NCBI RefSeq assembly: GCF_041248615.1
Contig: NZ_CP158426.1
DNA from: Escherichia coli
GTDB taxonomy: Bacteria; Pseudomonadota; Gammaproteobacteria; Enterobacterales; Enterobacteriaceae
Strand: one strand, 5' to 3'
DNA length: 64,000 nucleotides
Position 1 is the first letter of the stretch. Each line of letters begins with the position of its first letter. A program made the translations under genes and the position numbers. Under the pieces are notes generated by a model, which saw nothing but the letters and a program-made list of their open reading frames with translations, was not told where the DNA came from and did no database searches. Below, piece after piece: positions 2,335 through 18,176 of the stretch.

Positions 2335-2394
2335 GGGTAACCTCCACAACAGCGGGAGCACATGGCCCCCGGCGAAGATTGATTTAAGAATTTT

Positions 2395-3168
<774 letters not shown>

Positions 3169-3272
3169 ATCAGCATACTTGTCCTTAGCCTTCTGCAGTG
3201 ACAGCTGGTAGTACAGCGTGCTTCTGGCCAGCCCTGCAGCCTTTAACAGGTCAGACTGGCAGTGTCCGCACC

Positions 3273-4692: not shown

Positions 4693-7137
4693 ATGATGAT
4701 TTTGAGTATTCTCGCTACGGTTGTCCTGCTCGGCGCGTTGTTCTATCACCGCGTGAGCTTATTTATCAGCAGTCTGATTTTGCTCGCCTGGACAGCCGCC
4801 CTCGGCGTTGCTGGTCTGTGGTCGGCGTGGGTACTGGTGCCTCTGGCCATTATCCTCGTGCCATTTAACCTTACGCCTATGCGTAAGTCGATGATTTCCG
4901 CGCCGGTATTTCGCGGTTTCCGTAAGGTGATGCCGCCGATGTCGCGCACTGAGAAAGAAGCGATTGATGCGGGCACCACCTGGTGGGAAGGCGATTTGTT
5001 CCAGGGCAAGCCGGACTGGAAAAAGCTGCATAACTATCCGCAGCCGCGCCTGACCGCAGAAGAGCAAGCGTTTCTCGACGGCCCGGTAGAAGAAGCCTGC
5101 CGGATGGCGAATGATTTCCAGATTACTCATGAGCTGGCTGATTTGCCGCCGGAGTTGTGGGCGTACCTTAAAGAGCATCGTTTCTTCGCGATGATCATCA
5201 AAAAAGAGTACGGCGGGCTGGAGTTCTCGGCTTATGCCCAGTCTCGCGTGCTGCAAAAACTCTCCGGCGTGAGCGGGATCCTGGCGATTACCGTCGGCGT
5301 GCCAAACTCATTAGGCCCGGGTGAGCTACTGCAACATTACGGCACTGACGAGCAGAAAGATCACTATCTGCCGCGTCTGGCGCGTGGTCAGGAAATCCCT
5401 TGCTTTGCACTGACCAGCCCGGAAGCGGGTTCCGATGCGGGCGCGATTCCGGATACCGGGATTGTCTGCATGGGCGAATGGCTGGGCCAGCAGGTGCTGG
5501 GCATGCGTCTGACCTGGAACAAGCGTTACATTACGCTGGCACCGATTGCGACTGTGCTTGGCCTGGCGTTTAAACTCTCCGACCCGGAAAAACTGCTGGG
5601 TGGCGCAGAAGATTTAGGTATTACCTGTGCGCTGATCCCGACCACCACGCCGGGCGTGGAAATTGGTCGTCGCCATTTCCCGCTGAACGTACCGTTCCAG
5701 AACGGACCGACGCGCGGTAAAGATGTCTTCGTACCGATCGATTACATTATCGGCGGACCAAAAATGGCCGGGCAAGGCTGGCGGATGCTGGTGGAGTGCC
5801 TCTCGGTAGGCCGCGGTATCACCCTGCCTTCCAACTCAACCGGCGGCGTGAAATCGGTAGCGCTGGCAACGGGTGCGTATGCGCACATCCGCCGTCAGTT
5901 CAAAATCTCTATTGGTAAGATGGAAGGGATTGAAGAGCCGCTGGCGCGTATTGCCGGAAACGCTTATGTAATGGATGCTGCGGCATCGCTGATTACCTAC
6001 GGCATTATGCTCGGTGAAAAACCTGCCGTGCTGTCGGCTATCGTTAAGTATCACTGTACCCACCGCGGGCAGCAGTCGATTATTGATGCGATGGATATCA
6101 CTGGTGGTAAAGGCATTATGCTCGGGCAAAGCAACTTCCTGGCCCGTGCTTACCAGGGCGCACCGATTGCCATCACCGTTGAAGGGGCCAACATTCTGAC
6201 CCGTAGCATGATGATCTTCGGTCAGGGGGCGATTCGTTGCCATCCGTACGTGCTGGAAGAGATGGAAGCGGCGAAGAACAATGACGTAAACGCGTTCGAT
6301 AAACTGCTGTTCAAACATATCGGTCACGTCGGTAGCAACAAAGTTCGCAGCTTCTGGCTGGGCCTGACGCGCGGTTTAACCAGCAGCACGCCAACCGGCG
6401 ATGCCACTAAACGCTACTATCAGCACCTGAACCGCCTGAGCGCCAACCTCGCCCTGCTTTCTGATGTCTCGATGGCTGTGCTGGGCGGCAGCCTGAAACG
6501 TCGCGAGCGTATCTCGGCACGTCTGGGGGATATTTTAAGCCAGCTTTACCTCGCCTCTGCCGTTCTGAAGCGTTATGACGACGAAGGCCGTAATGAAGCC
6601 GACCTGCCGCTGGTGCACTGGGGCGTACAGGATGCGCTGTATCAGGCAGAACAGGCGATGGACGATTTACTGCAAAACTTCCCGAACCGCGTGGTTGCCG
6701 GGCTGCTGAATGTGGTGATCTTCCCGACCGGACGTCATTATCTGGCACCGTCTGACAAGCTGGATCATAAAGTGGCGAAGATTTTACAAGTGCCGAACGC
6801 CACTCGTTCACGTATTGGTCGCGGTCAGTACCTGACGCCAAGCGAGCATAACCCGGTTGGTTTACTGGAAGAGGCGCTGGTGGATGTGATTGCCGCCGAC
6901 CCGATTCATCAGCGGATCTGTAAAGAGCTGGGTAAAAATCTGCCATTTACCCGTCTGGATGAACTGGCGCACAACGCGCTGGCGAAGGGGCTGATTGATA
7001 AAGATGAAGCCGCTATTCTGGTGAAAGCTGAAGAAAGCCGTCTGCGCAGTATTAACGTTGATGACTTTGATCCGGAAGAGCTGGCGACGAAGCCGGTAAA
7101 GTTGCCGGAGAAAGTGCGGAAAGTTGAAGCCGCGTAA
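4693..7137 (+). CDS. fadE: acyl-CoA dehydrogenase
   Basis: ORF 4615..7137 trimmed to ATG 4693 ([14 protein letters not shown]...), 814 aa; N-terminal TM segments plus acyl-CoA dehydrogenase domains. Confidence 0.92.
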
Positions 7138-8671: not shown

Positions 8672-8990
8672 TCAGAAGTGACCGTCAAGGCGGTCACCGA
8701 ACTCGATAATAAAGCGACTCTTCCCTATCCGCCAGTCCTGAAGTGGCATCGTCCATTTTTGCGACGCTGACTGGAAAGCCAGCCACACCACTTTTTTCAC
8801 CGACTCATCTGTCGGGAACACTTTCCGTTTCTTTATCGCATGTGTGATGATGCTATTCAGCGATTCGATTGCGTTAGTGGTGTAGATAACCTTGCGGATC
8901 GCCTCCGGGTACACGAAGAATGTGGCAACATTCGGCCAGTTTGCCCGCCAGCTGCGACTTATCTGCGGGTACCGTGCATCCCATTCCTTC
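8672..8990 (-). pseudogene. IS256-family (mutator-type) transposase, 3' fragment only
   Basis: Frame translates ...ANWPNVATFFVYPEAIRKVIYTTNAIESLNSIITHAIKKRKVFPTDESVKKVVWLAF..., the C-terminal hallmark of IS256-family transposases; no N-terminal portion present. Confidence 0.6.
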
Positions 8991-9001: not shown

Positions 9002-10119
9002 TTACGAAAGCCCGCTCCCCGCAAGGACTGACGCCAGATAGTTTCTGTCCATGGCTGCTTTTCGCATCTTACGTCTTAACCCTGCCTTGAATACCTTATC
9101 ATTCGTCAAAATATTAATAGCGATGTGCCGTATCCCTGAAAATAATTCTGCTGCATTTCCTCTTCTTATTTTGCAGTCGTCTTCATTCATTACCACGTCC
9201 AGACGCCAGTGCAGCTTATTCTCCACGTGCCAGTGGTTTCGGATTGCTGTGGCGAACTTCTCTGCGGTTAAATCAGCAGAACTAATATAATATCTGACCG
9301 TCATTTCTGGCTCTTTCTTTTGTTCTGCTATTATTGACCGAAAGGAGACTGCCACGCATAATTTCTTCAGACCTTTCCATTCAAACGTGAAATCAATAAG
9401 TTCATCAGGGACATCGCAAACAATGTGAAGACGGATTTCTTCTCTGCCGTGACTCTTTTCACTCATTGCGTAACTGTCATGCTCTGGATTATTTAATTCT
9501 TTCAGCGGAAATTCTCGAAGGCTTTATTTAGCCGCCCCTGGTTTCCTTTTACAGCGAATAAATAATCACCTCCCTGTTTTTGTATCTTCTCTGCAATATC
9601 TTTCTGGCAACCCATCGCATCAGTTGTGATGATTTTTCCTTTAATATCCAGCATGTTAAGAAGTTCTGGGATAGCTGTAATTTCATTGGATTTCTCATCC
9701 GTCCTGATCTGTCCGATGACCAGACTGTGCATTGTTGAGAACGCACTAATGACATGAATCGCTCCCTTGCGGCGACTCTTGTCATAAGAATGCCGGAGTG
9801 TTTTTCCATCAATTGCGATGACGTCTTTATCATCTGAAGTATGGCAATCTCGCATCCAGTTAATAAAGCACTCGTGAAATTTTGCAGGACTGATACAGGA
9901 TACAACTCTGGCGATGGTATCGTGAACAGGAATACCATTTTCAAAATCACCGTATTGTTTTAAAAAATCGAGATGTGTTTCCCCAAAATCCTCTATATCT
10001 TCCCAACCTTCCGCACCCGAAATAACAGCACAAATAGTCAACAGTAGAATATCCGATAATTTATGTTCCACTTTCCAGGCTTGTCTGTAATCGGGGATAA
10101 TAGAAATATGCCCCATCAA
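9002..10119 (-). pseudogene. H-repeat-associated (ISAs1-family) transposase, split into two ORFs by a frame disruption
   Basis: ORFs 9502..10119 (205 aa) and 9002..9466 (154 aa) together match the N- and C-terminal halves of Rhs-associated H-rpt proteins ([40 protein letters not shown] ... [26 protein letters not shown]...[21 protein letters not shown]). Confidence 0.8.
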
Positions 10120-10354
10120 TTTTTTAAGTTCTATTTTGTTCTCCTTAATTATGTAAGGAGTATTTGATCATGTATAAGCAATAAAAAACAGCTTTAGGTA
10201 ATGAGGAATATCTCAATTTTTAAGCATAAAATGCGAATTGTTTAGTACAAAAAAGCAGCGTTACGTGATCTTTCCCTGCACTTCACCCTAACTTTAATTT
10301 AACTTCAAGAAGTATTAAGGCCTCAATAGCGAACTTAATACTTCTTAAAGAATA

Positions 10355-10732
10355 TCACTCCTGACCAAAATCTTTCCACACTAATGCATGAGACTTTGAT
10401 TTATCACCCAAAAATTTACTTACATCTTTCCAAAGTAAAGAATTGCTATCGGTCGCAGTGACTATTGCCTCTATAAGCCCTGTAGCTACAACTGTGGCCA
10501 ATTCATCATCAATCGAGACCATACCATCTTCGACATGTTTAAATATTTTTTCTCTTTCAATATCACCCATTTCATAAAAATTTTTTACAATCGTTTTTCC
10601 AATCTGAGAGAACAACATAACCACCGGTGGAGTTTCTGGATGCCAGTATTCATTAGCTAATGAGACTGTCTCAGACAAAACAGTGGAAAACGATGCCATT
10701 TTTTCTATATAATTAGCAATATATTGGTTCAT
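10355..10732 (-). CDS. putative Rhs immunity protein (cognate to Rhs C-terminal toxin)
   Basis: 125-aa ORF whose ATG overlaps the rhs stop (TAATG at 10730..10734, translational coupling); AT-rich relative to the rhs core; hairpin downstream (10299..10345). No recognisable family. Confidence 0.55.
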   Translation of the reverse strand: MNQYIANYIEKMASFSTVLSETVSLANEYWHPETPPVVMLFSQIGKTIVKNFYEMGDIEREKIFKHVEDGMVSIDDELATVVATGLIEAIVTATDSNSLLWKDVSKFLGDKSKSHALVWKDFGQE

Positions 10733-13700
10733 TACTTGCCTCCCAAAGCATTCTGTAAATCCTGAAGAACGTTTTCTGCTGCTGCTCGATCCCCTGGAGA
10801 TGCTGTTGGATTCTTATCCAACCAATCCTGTAAAGCCCTTGTATAATCCTGTGCTTTCAATACATGTCCTCTACCACCAACTTTTTCACCTGTGGCCAAT
10901 TCATAACGAACAGCATCTGCTGTGCTTCCACTTCCTACTTTTGCATTTGGCCGATAAAGATCGTCTATAATATTTTTCAAATTTGAATCTGTAACGTCAG
11001 GTTTTCCCATCTTCTGTCGCAATTCATCTTTATACCGTTCATGCTGCATACGATCTCTTGCGCTATTCTCATCTTCTGGTCCCCATCCTCCCGGGCTTCC
11101 CGTACTGCCACCACCCAGGCAGTTCTTCTCTTCCTCCGTCAAATCCTTCCCGACATTTGGATTCTCTTTTGATGAATCATCATTTCCAAACACGCTGGAA
11201 AAAGCACCATAGGGATCTCGCCAGAATTCCATTTGACTTTGTGCATTTAATAATTCGGCTTCACCCTGCATCTCCATACTTTTCTCAATCGCGTCCCCAA
11301 CAGCCTCGCGATTGTTGTATATTATTATACCACCACCAATAACCACCGTACCGACTGCCGCACCGACTAACATCCCCGGAGGGCCTCCTACCGAACCGAT
11401 CTCTGTACCTACTTCAGAACCAGTTCCCATGGCAGTTAATGCTCCTGCGCCCAACGCCGCACTTAATCCCAGCGGATCCAGCCGTTGCACCGGGTTCAGT
11501 GGATACGCATACAGGTTCCATCCCCCCTTCAGCCCAATCGGATCCTGGGTGATATACCTCCCCTGTAGCGGGTCATAGTACCGGTGACGGTTGTAGTACA
11601 GCCCCGACTCCTCATCATACTGCTGCCCCGGCAGACGGAGTGACTGTTGAAGGTGCTGCGTGCTTTCCTCTCCCAGCAGGTTTCCCCACTCGTCATACTC
11701 CCCGCGCCACGCCGTTTCCCCTTCCGGGCTGATAAGCGCCTGCGGCAGCCCACGGTGGTCACAGTGGTAAAGATGAAGTTTCCTCTCCGGGATGTATTCC
11801 GCCTCCAGTTGCGCCGCCATCTGTTCCGCCGTCAACCCACACTGTGCAAGCCACTGCTGGCTTTCTTCACTCACGCTGCCCTGCCGCAGTTCCCGCTCCA
11901 GCCTCCCCAGCATCACCGCCAGCTCCGCCGGTAGCGTCACACCCGTGTCCTCCTGCAACACCTCCGCCAGGCTACGGTGCCGCGCCTTCGCCTGTTCGCC
12001 ATTCTCTGTTTCGATTCTCAGGAGCGGCGTGAAGCTCCCCGGCTGGTATACCGTCTGGATACGCGTGGTGTCGGTCTGTACCGTCGTCAGCCTGTCGCCG
12101 TCCCACCCGTACCAGGTCACCTCCGGTTTACGCGACAGCGACATCCACCCCGTCAGGTCACGCTCCCGCCGCCACACCCGTTTTCCCGTCCGGCGGCCCA
12201 GCGGGTCATAGAGGTAGCGGCTCTCCACCTGTGGCTCGCCGTGCTGTATCCGCGTGTAGAACACCAGGCGGTGCTGGCTGTCGTAATGGTAGTGGTGCGT
12301 CCGCTCGTCGTGCATCCGTATCACCCCTTCCGGGATACGGTCCGTCTTCTCCGCCAGCCTGCCGTATTCATCGTAGCGGTAGACATAGTGCGCATCTTCC
12401 GTGATGCGGTTATCCGGCCACGCCGTGAAGGTGCTGTCCGGGTGCAGTTCCGGGTCCGGCAGCCGGTTTCCTGCCGGGTCCGTCGCATACGGGATATCAA
12501 TGTCCAGGTTCGCTGCCGTGGTGTGGACGCCCGTCAGCCTTCCCGTGTCGCTGTAACGGTACTCCCGGCTCTCCTGCGGGCCGCTGATGCGAATTAGCTG
12601 TCCGTTGTCGTTCCAGTCGTAGTCACGGTCAAGCTGCGGAAGGTTCAGGTGCCTGCTCCGGAGCTGGCCGCTGGTATTCCAGGCGGTGGCAAGCTCATAT
12701 GCCTCCCCGCCGAAGCTGCGGGCCGTCTCACGGTGCAGCCGGTCCCGCGTGTACTCGACCAGTGGCGTACCACCCAGCTTCATTCCCGCAAGATAACCGC
12801 TGCCATACGTCAGCCACTCCACCGGCGGCAGACCGTCCGGCTCCTGACGGGTCGCCAGCCCCTGTTCGCTGTACGCGTGCTTCGTCTCATGCTCCCACAG
12901 CATCTCCCCCGTCTCCGGGTTCTCCACCGTCTGCCGTTCGCCCGTCAGGCGGCCTTTATCGTCGTGGCCGTAGTGGACCGCCACACGGTGGCCTTCGCTG
13001 ATATGGCTGATTTCTGTCAGCCAGCCGTGCTCATCATACTGCCACTGCTCCGCCGGGTCGCCGTTCACCGTCCGGTGCGTGATGCGGTCCGACGCATCGT
13101 AATGCCAGAGGGTGATAAGCCCCTCATCTTCACTCTGCGTGAGTTTTCCGGTCAGGTCATAGTGGTAACGTTGCGTCCGCCCGTCAAAGCCGCGCTGCTC
13201 CGTCAGCCTGTCCACCGGGTCATACCGGAACGTGGACTGGCTGCCGTTCTCGTTGGTCAGCACGGTGGTGCGACCGGCGGCGTCATACCCCATGCTGCGC
13301 GTCAGTCCGCCTTCCGTCACACTCACCGGACGCCCGCGTTTATCATATTCGATGGTGCTGCGTTTACCGTCCGGTGATATCGTCGCTGTCAGGTCGCCTG
13401 CGGTGCTGTACTCATAACGGGTTTCACGCCCCTGCGCATCCTTCTGACTGACCAGTTGGCCACGCGGGTTATAACTGCTGTAAGTGCTGATGCCTTCTTC
13501 CCGGTGAACGGCGATTTGTTGACCGTACCGGTCATACTCATACCGCGTCGTGTACCCCGAGCAGTCCGTAAACGCCTGAAGCTGACCGTACCGGTTTCGC
13601 GTTATTCTCCGCATCACCCCGGTTCCGTCTTCCACCGCGCCGGGCAGGCTACTGCGGGGGGAGTCATAAAACCAGCGCGTAATGTTACCGTTGCGCGAGA

Positions 13701-15231
13701 TCTCTTCCGCCAGCCTGCCCTGACGGTCATATTTCCGGCTGCTGCGCAGCCCGTCCGGGTACGTCACTGACGTCAGTTGCAACTGGTTGTTGTAACCATA
13801 CCGTACCGTCCTGCCGTCCGGAAGTATCACTGAAGTCAGCTTTCCAGACGCCATATGCAGCCGATACTCCGTCCGCCGTCCCGCCGCATCCGTCTGCGCC
13901 TTCAGCCTCCCCGCCTCATCATACTCGCTGCGGGTGATGCTCCCGTCCGCATGTTCCTTCTTCACCACCCGCTTCAGGCCACCTTCGCCTTCCGTGTACA
14001 GCACCTCCCGCCTGTTCAGGCTGTCCGTGATGATTACCCGGCTCTCTCCGTACTCAAAGCGGTAGTCCAGCCCCTCCGGGTTGACCTGCTCCGTCACCCG
14101 GCCGGTATCATCATACCGGTAGCGGCTCTCCGGCCTCCCCGCATAATGGTGCGCCACCATCCGCCCGGCGTGCGCCACATCATAAGTAACCCCGCGCACC
14201 TGCGTCCCGCTGCGGTCATACACCGCCCGCAGTTCTCCGCTGGCCGTGTACGTGTAGCGCGCCAGCGGCGCAGTCGGCTGTTCATCCGGGTATGCCGGGT
14301 CGTGTGTCAGCCACACCGCCTCCAGCCGGATACCGTTATCGGCACCGTATTCTGTACCGACGGGCAGCGTATCGGGGAAAACCTGAGAAGAGGAAACAGA
14401 ACGGGGACCGGCAGGGGAAGATAAGGAAGACTCGCGCTGTTTACGGGACGCTTCCGCCCGCTGTGACTGTGTGGTCAGCGCCAGGTGAAAACAGCGGCCC
14501 GCGCCGTCCGTCACCCTGGTGATTTCACCAGCCAGTTCGCCTGCGGCCTCGCGGTGGAAAGTCAGTGAACGCCCGAAGCCGTCCACCACGCCCGTCAGCA
14601 CCCGGTATGCGGGTGGCTCCGGCGGCAACACCTCGTCCACCCCCGGCACCCGCTCCGGCCAGCCGAGTACCAGCCACTGCCCGGTTGTGCTGACAGCCAT
14701 CATATAGGTGTGTGGACTCAGGCGGACCGCTTCCGGCAACGCCCGCCAGAGCCGGGCCAGCGGGTGGCCTTTCTGCTGTTTCAGCACCCCGCCCCGCGCC
14801 AGCCAGAACGACTCGCTGCGGCTGTAGCTTATCTCGCCGGGAAACAGCGGCTCAAAGTGAATGCTCCTGCCGCCGCTGTCGTTGAGTATCAGGCCTTCAT
14901 CGCGTATCTGTAAGCGGATATCGAAGGGGGCTTTCCAGCCGGGACCAAACACCCCCACCGGCGCGGGCGTCCTGGTCCGGTAGCTGCTGTAGGCGCGGAA
15001 AAGAACAAACGGCAGCGGGCCGGACAGTGCCAGGTCGGTTTCAGCAGGCAGCACCTTCGCTCCCAGCAGCGGGTTTACCGGATTACCCTTCTGCTCCTCT
15101 ATCGGGCTGTTGGGACATACCGAACAGGCCACACCGGTTGGCGCACCTATCAGCACCCCTGCTGAACCCTGCACAATATCCAGTCCCTTGCGGGTCATGT
15201 CACCCTGCCGCGCCGCCGGTTTTCCACCCAT
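10732..15231 (-). CDS. PAAR-domain Rhs-family T6SS effector with divergent C-terminal toxin domain
   Basis: 1499-aa ORF; N-terminal PAAR-like domain ([16 protein letters not shown]...), many YD/RHS repeats (RYxYD), Rhs core end with DPxGL motif ([27 protein letters not shown]), then a 243-aa C-terminal tail (about 10735..11463). Confidence 0.9.
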
Positions 15232-15306: not shown

Positions 15307-17448
15307 TCAAAATTGCCGCATATCCGGCATTCCGGGGGGTAAATCTTTCGGCACAGGCGCATCCGGTACAGGTTGTGTGGCACCACAGTTCCAGTTAATC
15401 ACCGGCGCATCACCGTTCACATCCGACTCTCCTTCCAGATGAATGTGCGTACCATTGAGAAATATGCTTCCGTCCTTCGTCAGCACCAACCTTGCCTTAC
15501 CGCAGCAGAGTTCCAGATGCTCACCGGCAGAATAAACTGCTGTTTGTCCGGTGTTTTCCTTCATCGTCTTGCCCACCGAGAAGGTGACGTTATTCCCTAC
15601 ATTGACGCTGTAGCCCATTCCCACCATCAGTGATTTATGCAGCCCTACCTGTGAGGACTGCAACAACGCCACCGAGGTATTCATGATGCCGCCTACCGTC
15701 GTCTGGTAAGCCACGCCCACCGTCAGCGCACGAATGATCCCCACCTTTTCAACCTGGTTTGAACCCACTTTGACAATCTGGTTGCTGCCTACCGTTTCCA
15801 CCTGGTTGACACCAACCGTCTGTATCTGATTAACGCCAATGTTCTGGATCTGGTTATTGGTAACGGTGATCGCCTGGTTGTTACCTATTTTTTCGGCATG
15901 GTTGTTTATCACATCCGTGGTGCGGTTATTCAGCACCTCGGTGTTCATGTTCTTCTGCGCGTGGATGTAGACCTGTTCTTTCCCTGTCGCATCGTCAAAC
16001 TTCAGTTCATTAAACCCGCTGCCCTTATAGGTTTTCGAACGAATGGTCATCTGCGTCTTTGTTCCCGGCAGGCTGCCGGGGGTGCGGTTTTCCTGGTGGT
16101 AGGTACGCCCCATAATAATCGGCTGGTCCGGATCGCCGTTGAGGAAGTCCACAATGACTTCCTGACCCACACGCGGTATCGCCAGGTTGCCAAAGCCGGT
16201 GCCTGCCCACGCCTGTGCCACACGGATCCAGCATGAACTGTCCTGGTTTGACGGGTTATAGCGGTCCCAGTTAAATTTCACCCGCACGCGGCCATGTTCA
16301 TCACAGAAGATTTCTTCTCCTGCCGGTCCCGTCACGACGGCGCTCTGCGGGCCGTCCACCAGCGGTTTCAGCAACGGCTGTGGCCGCCATGTTCTGTCTG
16401 CCGGTATTACCGCAAAGTGGTTATTCAGCGTGGTACCTGAACCCCTGCGTCCCGGCACCGCCTGCGGCTGCTCGCCGTGCAGTTCACTTGCCACCACCTG
16501 CCATTCCCGGTTCAGGTTCGCCTGCGGATGCCCCGTCAGCGCAATTCGCCGTCCCGGCCATATCTCCGGCGAACGGCTTGTTCCGCGCGCCACTTCTGCG
16601 TTGTTTCGCCAGCCATCCATCTGCCAGCAGGCAAAGTTCTGCCCGTGGGCACCCTTGAAACGTCCGGGGTAGTCATACACTTCATACTGTGTGCGCTGGT
16701 AATCCTGGTGCTGGCCTTCCTGATCAAAACGCCCTGCCCAGCCGGGTCGTTTAAAGGTGTAGTCTTTGGTCACCACGGAAGATGGGCGGATTTGTGCGCT
16801 GTAGAGGAACTGGCTGATGCATAGGGTGCTCACCTCGGTACGGGTGTTCGGATTCCAGGGGATCTCAAAGGACTCCGGCAGATAACGCACGGTGTCGCAC
16901 AGGACCAGGCTCTGGTCGGTACTTTTTTGCGCGTGCTCCTCATAAAAGAAGATGCCTTCCTCCGCCGCCATCCGGCACAGGAAATCGTAATCGGTTTCGC
17001 CGTACTGGACACAAAACTCACGGGAAGGATGCGGCTCGCTGAACAGCGGACTCCACTCGGTCACCCCGTTTTCTTTCAGGATCGTCGCGAGTATGCTTTC
17101 GATGTCCTCATTCTGGAAGATACGGAAGTTCTGGCGCAGCCCTGTGCGCCACAGCGGTGGGCACACCTTCATGCTGTACAGCATCTGGTTTTTGTCGTTC
17201 TCCCCCAGTTCAAACCAGGTCACCACACCTTTCACCCGGCGCTGTACGTCATCGCCCTGCCATACCGTCAGGTAGGCCATTTTGTCCAGCACCTGCGCAA
17301 ATTCAAGGGAGAGAAACTGCTGGCTGACCAGAGAGAGATCGAGGGAAAAGAGCGAAGAGAGTGACTGGTTCAGATGAAAGGAGACCACCGCAAACGCGTC
17401 CGGTGGCAGGCCGTCCACTTCCAGCGTGAAACGTAATCCGGTTGACAT
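15307..17448 (-). CDS. vgrG: T6SS spike protein VgrG (TssI)
   Basis: 713-aa ORF MSTGLRFTLEVDGLP... with gp27/gp5-like regions and C-terminal beta-helix repeat run (VGxNQ repeats). Confidence 0.92.
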   Translation of the reverse strand: MSTGLRFTLEVDGLPPDAFAVVSFHLNQSLSSLFSLDLSLVSQQFLSLEFAQVLDKMAYLTVWQGDDVQRRVKGVVTWFELGENDKNQMLYSMKVCPPLWRTGLRQNFRIFQNEDIESILATILKENGVTEWSPLFSEPHPSREFCVQYGETDYDFLCRMAAEEGIFFYEEHAQKSTDQSLVLCDTVRYLPESFEIPWNPNTRTEVSTLCISQFLYSAQIRPSSVVTKDYTFKRPGWAGRFDQEGQHQDYQRTQYEVYDYPGRFKGAHGQNFACWQMDGWRNNAEVARGTSRSPEIWPGRRIALTGHPQANLNREWQVVASELHGEQPQAVPGRRGSGTTLNNHFAVIPADRTWRPQPLLKPLVDGPQSAVVTGPAGEEIFCDEHGRVRVKFNWDRYNPSNQDSSCWIRVAQAWAGTGFGNLAIPRVGQEVIVDFLNGDPDQPIIMGRTYHQENRTPGSLPGTKTQMTIRSKTYKGSGFNELKFDDATGKEQVYIHAQKNMNTEVLNNRTTDVINNHAEKIGNNQAITVTNNQIQNIGVNQIQTVGVNQVETVGSNQIVKVGSNQVEKVGIIRALTVGVAYQTTVGGIMNTSVALLQSSQVGLHKSLMVGMGYSVNVGNNVTFSVGKTMKENTGQTAVYSAGEHLELCCGKARLVLTKDGSIFLNGTHIHLEGESDVNGDAPVINWNCGATQPVPDAPVPKDLPPGMPDMRQF

Positions 17449-17657: not shown

Positions 17658-18176
17658 TTATGCTTCCAGCGGTGCGCGCCAGTCGTCGGCACCGGAGGTG
17701 CCAGACTTGACGTGTTCCCACTCTATTTTGCGGTAGGCCAGTGAAACTTCGAGCAACTGGGTGAACTCGCGTTTCGCCGGATCCTGGCAATGCGGCATAT
17801 GCAGTTTCATATCGACAATCGTCGAATCGGTCAGGCGGGTGGTGAAATAATGCTCCTGTTTGCCTTCCACAGAGGTACGCCACCAGTGAAGTTCAGTGGT
17901 TGGCAGCATTTCGCCGGAGGCCAGTGCGTTGTACATCAGCGGAACAGCTTTGTTCAGCGCCACGGTAAAAATGAACGGCTTGTGAGCACGCTGACCCGCA
18001 GGCTGGCCGGACTGAGGATCGGTCGGGACAGTAACGTTATGCAGGAATTCCTGCACCAGCATCTCGTCTTCGTGCCCCTGCACATAGATGTTGCCGACAG
18101 AATCAGCGGTAAATGCACCTGCAGTAATATTTCCCTGGGTCTGACCAGTGATGGAGATATAACACGGTGTTGGCAT
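17658..18176 (-). CDS. hcp: T6SS tube protein Hcp (TssD)
   Basis: 172-aa ORF MPTPCYISITGQTQGNITAG... typical Hcp N-terminus and length. Confidence 0.92.
   Translation of the reverse strand: MPTPCYISITGQTQGNITAGAFTADSVGNIYVQGHEDEMLVQEFLHNVTVPTDPQSGQPAGQRAHKPFIFTVALNKAVPLMYNALASGEMLPTTELHWWRTSVEGKQEHYFTTRLTDSTIVDMKLHMPHCQDPAKREFTQLLEVSLAYRKIEWEHVKSGTSGADDWRAPLEA

Follow-up and report, generated by a model that had tools for sequence, protein, structure and literature searches.

An exchangeable toxin/immunity cassette at the C-terminus of an Escherichia coli Rhs protein, with a toxin domain from a large, phylum-spanning family paired with DUF7674 proteins

Background

The subject of this report is an rhs gene of Escherichia coli, carried in a 64,000-nucleotide stretch of DNA (contig NZ_CP158426.1 of RefSeq assembly GCF_041248615.1; hereafter, the window), which encodes an Rhs protein ending in a toxin domain and is followed by a coupled immunity gene. 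To place this toxin, a brief account of the closest described systems is needed. CdiA-CT(UPEC536), a tRNA anticodon nuclease of known structure (5J43/5J5V), is the reference Ntox28 tRNase; its active site consists of D155, W176, H178 and E181 (PMC9086364), and it is inactivated by the H178A substitution (PMC5562914). The motifs of the Ntox28 family are D, K[DE], [DN]HxxE and E (Zhang et al. 2012, PMC3482391). CdiA-CT regions are bipartite, consisting of a cytoplasm-entry domain at the N-terminus and a cytotoxic one at the C-terminus (Willett et al. 2015, reviewed in PMC9086364), a plan of two independently exchangeable modules to which the tail of the window Rhs protein also conforms. The CdiA-CT entry domain, however, is a Cys-containing helical bundle, whereas the corresponding N-terminal module (N-module) of the Rhs tail is a glycine-zipper, transmembrane (TM)-like segment on a protein delivered by a type VI secretion system (T6SS).

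In Rhs proteins, autoproteolysis at the PxxxxDPxGL motif frees the C-terminal tail. The characterised Rhs-CT effectors of E. coli and other enterobacteria (Rhs-CT1/3/5, Ma et al. 2017; Serratia Rhs2; Photorhabdus Tre23) have the vgrG-rhs-immunity layout and DPxGL boundary of the window locus, with, as here, a low-GC swapped cassette followed by an ISAs1 (H-repeat) element. These toxins have assigned domains (metallopeptidase, REase-3, Toxin_55, HNH and ADP-ribosyltransferase), none of which is matched by the window toxin. In another Rhs toxin, the pore-forming Tse5-CT of P. aeruginosa, a glycine-zipper segment directly follows the Rhs cleavage site, as it does in the window. Tse5 is reportedly neutralised by a membrane immunity protein; the window immunity protein, in contrast, is soluble and pairs with a helical C-terminal domain. 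How Rhs toxins cross the inner membrane is regarded as poorly understood (2025 preprint, 10.1101/2025.10.28.685041).

Here we show that the window locus is a genuine, intact Rhs effector/immunity cassette. A first-pass annotation, made earlier from the letters of the window alone, had outlined a toxin tail and an immunity gene; beyond this, we find that the toxin belongs to a very large, phylum-spanning family that has no name, and that the tail itself is modular. On balance we consider it probable, if only somewhat, that the cassette represents the swappable C-terminal end of a T6SS-1 Rhs effector with its immunity gene, acting by the mechanism proposed at the end of this report.

Results and discussion

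The Rhs tail has three parts and ends in a helical toxin domain

The rhs gene (10732-15231, minus strand) is an intact open reading frame (ORF) of 1499 codons, and the region shows 100% identity to the one annotated as "RHS element core protein" (WP_021516938.1). The NCBIfam equivalog RHS_core (NF041261) covers residues 1-1256 with a score of 2492 bits, TIGR01643 and TIGR03696 also match, and Pfam finds DUF6531 (residues 49-126) together with RHS repeats. The sequence DPLGL, the end of the PxxxxDPxGL motif, occupies residues 1252-1256 (11464-11478, minus strand), and is the predicted, by analogy with other Rhs proteins the expected, site of the cleavage releasing the tail. Thus the core terminates at L1256 (bases 11464-11466), and the translation and the end of the RHS_core match agree with the first-pass annotation that a 243-residue tail (residues 1257-1499) begins at base 11463.

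That annotation could not place the tail in any known toxin family, nor did the profile searches find a known domain for it. The tail has no match in Pfam or NCBIfam, the toxin domain none in PADLOC or PHROGs, and the folded domain none in the PDB by sequence, by profile or with Foldseek. Full-text searches of the literature with the accessions, with DUF7674/PF24722 and with sequence motifs retrieved no paper.

The tail consists of a glycine-zipper hydrophobic module, a joint rich in Gly, Ser and acidic residues, and an all-helical toxin domain of about 100 residues, all encoded on the minus strand. The first of these, the pre-toxin N-module (residues 1257-1356; 11164-11463), comprises the hydrophobic segment and then a short helical region. 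The joint (residues 1357-1389; 11065-11163) follows, and the toxin domain (residues 1390-1499; 10735-11064), with a folded core at about 1397-1499, comes last. The tail had earlier been described as a Gly/Ala-rich hydrophobic segment followed by a single Gly/Asp/Lys-rich domain; the segment does come first, but the supposed domain resolves into two parts, a flexible joint and a folded helical domain. Structure prediction gave five helices for the latter, with a small hairpin between helices 3 and 4, at a predicted local distance difference test score (pLDDT) of 91 and a predicted template modelling score (pTM) of 0.83.

The toxin domain belongs to a very large, phylum-spanning family

Using a profile built from the first hits, and counting representative clusters at 50% identity, we recovered 2286 clusters at E<=0.001, 1518 of them at E<=1e-10. 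No Pfam family matched any of the 78 family members that were scanned singly. In every case the domain forms the very C-terminal end of its carrier, and the carriers are diverse, including Rhs (PF03527), PT-VENN/CdiA (PF04829), PAAR (PF05488), PT-HINT (PF07591), CpnT-like, methyl-accepting-like and type VII secretion system (T7SS)-signal proteins. A scan of one genome per species yielded 80 loci from Gamma-, Beta-, Alpha- and Deltaproteobacteria, Campylobacter, Bdellovibrio, Actinobacteria, Firmicutes, Chlamydiae, Planctomycetes, Chloroflexi, Cyanobacteria, Acidobacteria and Treponema; the 2286-cluster family also spans the Spirochaetes.

Alignment of 55 diverse sequences revealed twelve invariant columns, namely L1418 and a core set of eleven: G1433, G1435, S1436, T1437, A1438, A1440, R1442, E1444, H1456, K1459 and D1481. 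The resulting signature is GxGSTAxAxRxE…HxxK…D, and in the AlphaFold2 model the GxGSTA loop sits at the N-terminus of a helix.

A divergent member was found in Proteus mirabilis H63 (2345-3180 of the region examined), on a frameshifted rhs gene. It reads PDGGT in place of GSGST, Leu in place of the Arg and Thr in place of the Glu, while the H..K pair is kept and is preceded by Asp, as in Ntox28; the 134-residue ORF downstream matches the hidden Markov model (HMM) of the immunity family described below (E 5e-14). Either this copy is decaying, or it indicates that the Arg and Glu are dispensable.

A conserved DUF7674 gene encodes the immunity protein

Directly downstream of rhs in the window lies a 125-codon ORF (10355-10732, minus strand), translationally coupled to it: the stop and start codons overlap as TAATG, as previously noted, and GGAGG stands 6 nt upstream of the ATG. 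The first-pass annotation took this ORF to be the immunity gene, and the comparative evidence bears this out. At each sampled locus we examined the ORF starting next to the toxin stop codon; 43 of 79 such ORFs matched the E. coli protein directly (phmmer), and after two profile rounds 71 of 79, from more than ten phyla, proved homologous to it. Of the 79 ORFs, 58 begin between -4 and +5 nt relative to the end of the toxin gene, and the eight non-matching loci are mostly beside truncated toxin ORFs. At E<=0.001, 49 of 54 immunity homologues match Pfam DUF7674 (PF24722), the best at 1.5e-23; the E. coli protein itself matches at E 5.7e-4. A C-terminal domain on diverse carriers with a conserved gene downstream is, at the level of sequence comparison, the pattern of a polymorphic toxin/immunity system.

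The two partners were also modelled together in AlphaFold2, as a toxin-linker-immunity fusion with a (G4S)5 linker and a paired alignment of toxin and immunity proteins from the same locus (50 loci). The model reached a pTM of 0.87 at a mean pLDDT of 90, and only the artificial linker was disordered. Such a pTM would be out of reach for two domains lacking a confident interface, and the model therefore indicates that the toxin and the 125-residue protein likely bind each other directly. Taken together, the conserved neighbourhood, the DUF7674 matches and the fusion model make the assignment of this ORF as the cognate immunity gene well supported.

Neither a signal peptide nor a TM segment was found in the 125-residue protein, and the target of the toxin is therefore expected to be in the cytoplasm. 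Toxins that act on nucleic acids are usually basic and paired with an acidic immunity protein. All 50 immunity proteins analysed have an isoelectric point (pI) below 5.5 (median 4.6), that of the E. coli protein being 4.8; among 50 toxin domains, the pI exceeds 8 in 40 (median 9.4).

The modules of the tail have been exchanged independently

Base composition falls stepwise: the Rhs core has a G+C content of 0.631, the hydrophobic module 0.49, the toxin domain 0.42 and the 125-codon ORF 0.355, against 0.521 for the window as a whole. The first-pass annotation had read the AT-richness as that of a swapped-in cassette, and the distribution of the cassette among E. coli genomes is in keeping with this. 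The DNA of the toxin and immunity gene is present in 402 of 5426 complete E. coli genomes, of which only 268 also have the hydrophobic module of the window (module 1). In about 128 genomes, a different hydrophobic Gly/Ala-rich module precedes the same joint, toxin and immunity gene; in the E308- and UMB200201_11-type genomes, joint, toxin and immunity gene are 98% identical to those of the window behind the other module, with similarity starting at ...PNVGKDL. Conversely, about 606 genomes, for example SE11, have an orphan fragment, truncated by ISAs1, in which module 1 and the joint (96.8% nucleotide identity) are joined to a different tail after ...GGW-P. When the N-module changes, as between E308-type genomes and the window, the immunity gene stays with the toxin domain. 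From these comparisons the low-GC cassette is evidently exchangeable, and the modules of its tail have evidently been exchanged independently in E. coli. Effector/immunity assignment and modularity are thus both shown by comparative data.

In the SE11 region examined, the copy (5993-6472) is an orphan C-terminal fragment with its 5' end cut by ISAs1, which ends in a different short tail and is followed by a DUF3969 gene and a second full rhs gene.

The swaps of module 1 on one side of the joint and of the tail on the other identify the joint as a second-level recombination patch, in addition to that at DPxGL; recombination break-points flank it on both sides. The joint is also the only part of the tail with a sequence match in the PDB, to CdiA-CT(UPEC536) (chains 5j5v/5j43/8zyc, residues about 86-120; E about 6e-6), where the matching stretch lies just upstream of the nuclease domain. 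The Ntox28 toxins of Providencia are preceded by the same joint, and a Yersinia CdiA that carries the present toxin has a UPEC536-type entry domain together with the joint (52% identity). At the protein level, the pattern NPN[IV]GKDLT-EEK-LGG-GSG-PGGW-PEDE is conserved in Rhs and CdiA carriers, before at least three different toxin domains. Besides its part in recombination, the joint may serve as a processing site or a flexible tether.

Two forms of the toxin separated from its carrier were also seen. In many E. coli assemblies (e.g. CP055055.1, 2990-3001 of the region), an E308-type rhs gene has a CAG-to-TAG change two codons before Met1408, yielding a 1402-residue Rhs protein and a separate 92-residue ORF annotated as "type IV secretion protein Rhs"; the 92-residue ORF occurs in 3242 index blocks. 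Stand-alone 92-residue "toxins" in E. coli were accordingly set aside as a product of this mutation, which splits the related rhs gene; the effector appears, from its sequence, to be disarmed with its immunity gene kept. On the metagenome contig ERZ25042269 (3001-3671 of the region), a free-standing 92-residue toxin ORF and a DUF7674 gene lie beside IS91- and DDE-type transposases, and this pair looks like an orphan cassette on the move.

The hydrophobic module as a candidate entry module

The sole TM-like segment of the whole Rhs protein is found in the N-module (residues 1286-1304; highest 19-residue Kyte-Doolittle average, KD19, 2.16), within a stretch of small-xxx-small repeats that includes four GxxxGxxxG motifs. 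Other carriers of the toxin, in Electrothrix, Myxococcales, Chlamydiae, Paracaedibacter and Treponema, have unrelated hydrophobic Gly/Ala-rich segments in the same position. By analogy with the CdiA-CT entry domain, the module may insert into the inner membrane of the target cell, or help the toxin cross it, a suggestion to which we give a little less than an even chance. Two points weigh against it: the translocation role is drawn from analogy only, and a hydrophobic pre-toxin segment is missing from some carriers of the toxin.

Glycine zippers are characteristic of toxins that insert into membranes, and with its four GxxxGxxxG motifs and a KD19 of 2.16 the module could alternatively be the killing agent itself, forming pores or depolarising the inner membrane like Tse5-CT, with the helical domain as an accessory. 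The genetics of immunity make this very unlikely. The product of the one immunity gene present is soluble and acidic, its family tracks the C-terminal domain and not the hydrophobic module across 71 loci, the ORF list contains no membrane immunity gene, and the same toxin and immunity gene occur behind a different module in E308-type genomes. Moreover, the C-terminal domain is found on CdiA, HINT and Gram-positive carriers that do not have the hydrophobic module of the window. With an immunity protein that is soluble and stays with the helical domain through replacements of the module, it is unlikely that the module is a pore-forming toxin in its own right, and we retain the helical domain as the toxin.

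Possible chemistry of the toxin domain

An invariant set of Arg, Glu, His and Lys residues is typical of cyclizing RNases. This cluster, the phosphate-type GxGST loop, the basic toxin/acidic immunity pattern and a universal cytoplasmic target are the reasons for preferring a metal-independent RNase, and, as a working model that we hold the most likely but rate somewhat below an even chance, we treat the domain as an Ntox28-like helical RNase; its RNase chemistry is inferred. The nearest toxin structure to the domain is that of the tRNase CdiA-CT(UPEC536) (5J43 chain F), with which the window toxin also has the joint in common, and AFDB50 contains a "Bacterial toxin 28 domain-containing protein" with 40% identity to the query. 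With hhalign and inspection by eye, a collinear alignment of the two toxins was obtained that places H1456 on the catalytic H178, pairing TG…GG…H1456 with DG…GG…H178, NP with NP, and the AL-G ends. The first hhalign run against the UPEC536 clade, the alignment of which was built from the cdiA gene of E. coli 536, gave E 0.25 in the wrong region; a broader profile recovers the by-eye alignment at P 0.05.

Several observations weigh against this model. The hhalign score against the UPEC536 clade was 15.4, a value reached by 29 of 400 column shuffles. Pfam Ntox28 (PF15605) is matched neither by the E. coli domain nor by any of 78 family members (40 plus 38 divergent); the UPEC536 domain itself scores only 20 bits against that profile. 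The [DN]HxxE motif of Ntox28 reads xHxxK in the toxin family (consensus xHxQK), the residue before the His being variable and the Lys at +3 invariant. CdiI(UPEC536) is not matched by the immunity HMM, the E. coli toxin domain is itself mildly acidic (pI 5.7), and the Proteus relative, though on a frameshifted rhs gene, has neither the Arg nor the Glu.

Comparison with CdiA-CT(UPEC536) in other respects also brings out differences. There is no significant sequence or profile similarity between the two toxin domains, and only the His of D155/W176/H178/E181 is kept, the window toxin having instead its GxGST/R/E/H/K/D set. The GYGI tail of CdiA-CT(UPEC536) is absent from the window toxin, so no activation by CysK is expected, and CdiI(UPEC536) and the window immunity protein belong to unrelated families.

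Four more specific assignments were considered and rejected. Membership of Ntox28 was discarded on the Pfam result, the shuffled hhalign scores, the motif and the immunity mismatch, and Ntox28 is kept as a fold-level lead only. A HEPN RNase was discarded because there is no Rx4-6H motif (R1442 and H1456 are 13 residues apart, and no conserved Arg lies 5-7 residues before the His). For an ADP-ribosyltransferase (R…STS…E), the motif residues stand much too close together, and the fold is helical throughout. CdiI(UPEC536) was dismissed as a DUF7674 relative for want of an immunity-HMM match.

The same evidence can be turned towards an enzyme with another cytoplasmic substrate, be it a DNase, an enzyme that consumes nucleotides or NAD, or one that modifies proteins and uses GxGST for phosphate binding. 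The domain has no significant sequence link to any RNase family; its invariant GxGSTA loop, placed at a helix N-terminus, resembles a phosphate- or anion-binding site, into which a nucleotide would fit just as RNA would; and the occurrence of carriers in both Gram-negative and Gram-positive bacteria demands only a universal cytoplasmic target. However, about 100 residues of pure helix is small for the known NADases, ADP-ribosyltransferases, kinases and (p)ppApp synthetases, the nearest toxin structure is that of a tRNase, and the charge pattern of toxin and immunity protein favours a nucleic-acid target. We therefore regard a non-RNase enzyme as unlikely, though a serious contender. A more far-reaching proposal, that the helical domain founds an undescribed superfamily of enzymatic toxins with a chemistry or target unlike those of the known polymorphic-toxin RNases, and that the swappable glycine-zipper module is a self-inserting inner-membrane translocator, appears to us distinctly improbable as a whole.

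Genetic setting, delivery and integrity of the locus

The spike protein expected to carry the Rhs protein is encoded by vgrG (15307-17448, minus strand; 713 residues), assigned by its NCBIfam match (VI_Rhs_Vgr, E 5e-188) and its annotated context. In strain 7/2, in which the region is identical, the cassette stands at the end of a T6SS island adjoining tRNA-Asp, with tssB-tssC-tssE-tssF-tssG-tagH-tssJ-tssK-dotU-clpV-vasI-tssA-tssM-vasL-hcp on one side and hcp-vgrG-rhs-"hypothetical protein"-ISAs1 pseudogene-yafV on the other. The rhs gene is thus genetically linked to hcp and vgrG inside a complete T6SS cluster. The T6SS core genes (tssA-M, clpV, hcp and vgrG) are annotated as intact in this strain, with zero pseudogene flags.

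The island has two hcp genes (~17658-18176 and ~38451-38933), one directly upstream of vgrG-rhs and the other at the far end beside vasL, and a 74-residue hypothetical gene sits between tssB and tssC. Downstream of the cassette, an ISAs1 (H-repeat) transposase pseudogene (window ~9002-10134, minus strand) is interrupted, in the identical record with annotation, by a frameshift and an internal stop; it is followed by a second transposase fragment (8672-8983, minus strand) and then by yafV. An ISAs1 remnant with a transposase fragment is the classic downstream end of an Rhs element. Just past the stop codon of the immunity gene, at a distance of 5 nt, is an AT-rich 17-nt inverted repeat (10303-10350, strand not assigned; 94% complementary, 14-nt loop), which has no T-run and so was not called by the terminator scan. 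It could be a weak terminator or the end of the adjacent insertion sequence.

The prePAAR effectors (Ahmad et al. 2020, PMC7773334) are defined by the motif AARxxDxxxH, N-terminal TM domains and a PAAR domain; the motif resembles the N-terminal strand normally seen in a PAAR domain that is intact. The window protein has a single P-A-A-R string (residues 5-8), followed by a short PAAR-like start, and no match to Pfam PAAR (PF05488) at E<=10 in residues 1-1138. Of the "PAAR-Rhs" label given in the first-pass annotation, the Rhs part and the string therefore stand, but not a Pfam PAAR domain; likewise, its comparison with prePAAR holds for residues 6-11, which fit AARxxD, but fails at the final His, which is replaced by K15. 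Residues 1-150 contain no TM-like segment (highest KD19 1.28). The 75-bp gap between vgrG and rhs, correctly described as lacking a chaperone gene, contains no ORF. The prePAAR class was rejected on these three grounds, the missing His, the missing TM-like segment and the absence of an ORF for Eag/DUF1795 in the gap. Since the motif His is missing and the N-terminus has no TM-like segment, no Eag/DUF1795 chaperone is expected, and its absence is not the puzzle that it was taken to be.

It might be argued that the locus is an inactive relic, in which the cassette is carried but no longer delivered, given the ISAs1 pseudogene directly downstream and the CAG-to-TAG stop that detaches the toxin domain in the related rhs gene of many E. 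coli genomes. In the window, however, the 1499-codon ORF is intact and the CAG codon is kept. An exact counterpart (100% identity) of the 1.4 kb containing the cassette is present in 267 complete E. coli genomes, many from human clinical isolates, and the annotation of the identical strain shows all T6SS core genes intact. A relic thus seems to us highly improbable.

Conclusions

In the mechanism that we propose, the Rhs shell would enclose the 243-residue tail, which cleavage at DPLGL would free, as expected from known Rhs proteins. The glycine-zipper module may then enter the inner membrane of the target cell and aid the crossing of the toxin, in the manner of the CdiA-CT cytoplasm-entry domain. 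The Gly/Ser/acidic joint would provide flexibility and double as a homology patch for module swaps. In the cytoplasm, the five-helix toxin domain of about 100 residues, with its polar cluster (the GxGST loop, R1442, E1444, H1456, K1459 and D1481), would carry out metal-independent cleavage of RNA, as a tRNase or rRNase, as does the all-helical Ntox28 toxin CdiA-CT(UPEC536). The producing cell would be protected by the acidic, cytosolic 125-residue DUF7674 protein, binding the toxin domain directly.

The toxin family is among the larger polymorphic-toxin domains still without a name, a structure or an activity. Its link to DUF7674 gives the latter an immunity role, and the pairing lets both partners be annotated in thousands of genomes. 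The modular tail, with its pair of alternative hydrophobic modules, a single toxin and a single joint in common with CdiA, offers a tractable E. coli system for inner-membrane crossing; if true, a self-inserting glycine-zipper module would be the Rhs/T6SS counterpart of the CdiA-CT entry domain and would explain how a cytoplasmic toxin crosses the inner membrane. Finally, with the cassette fixed in 267 complete E. coli genomes, it may play a part in strain competition.

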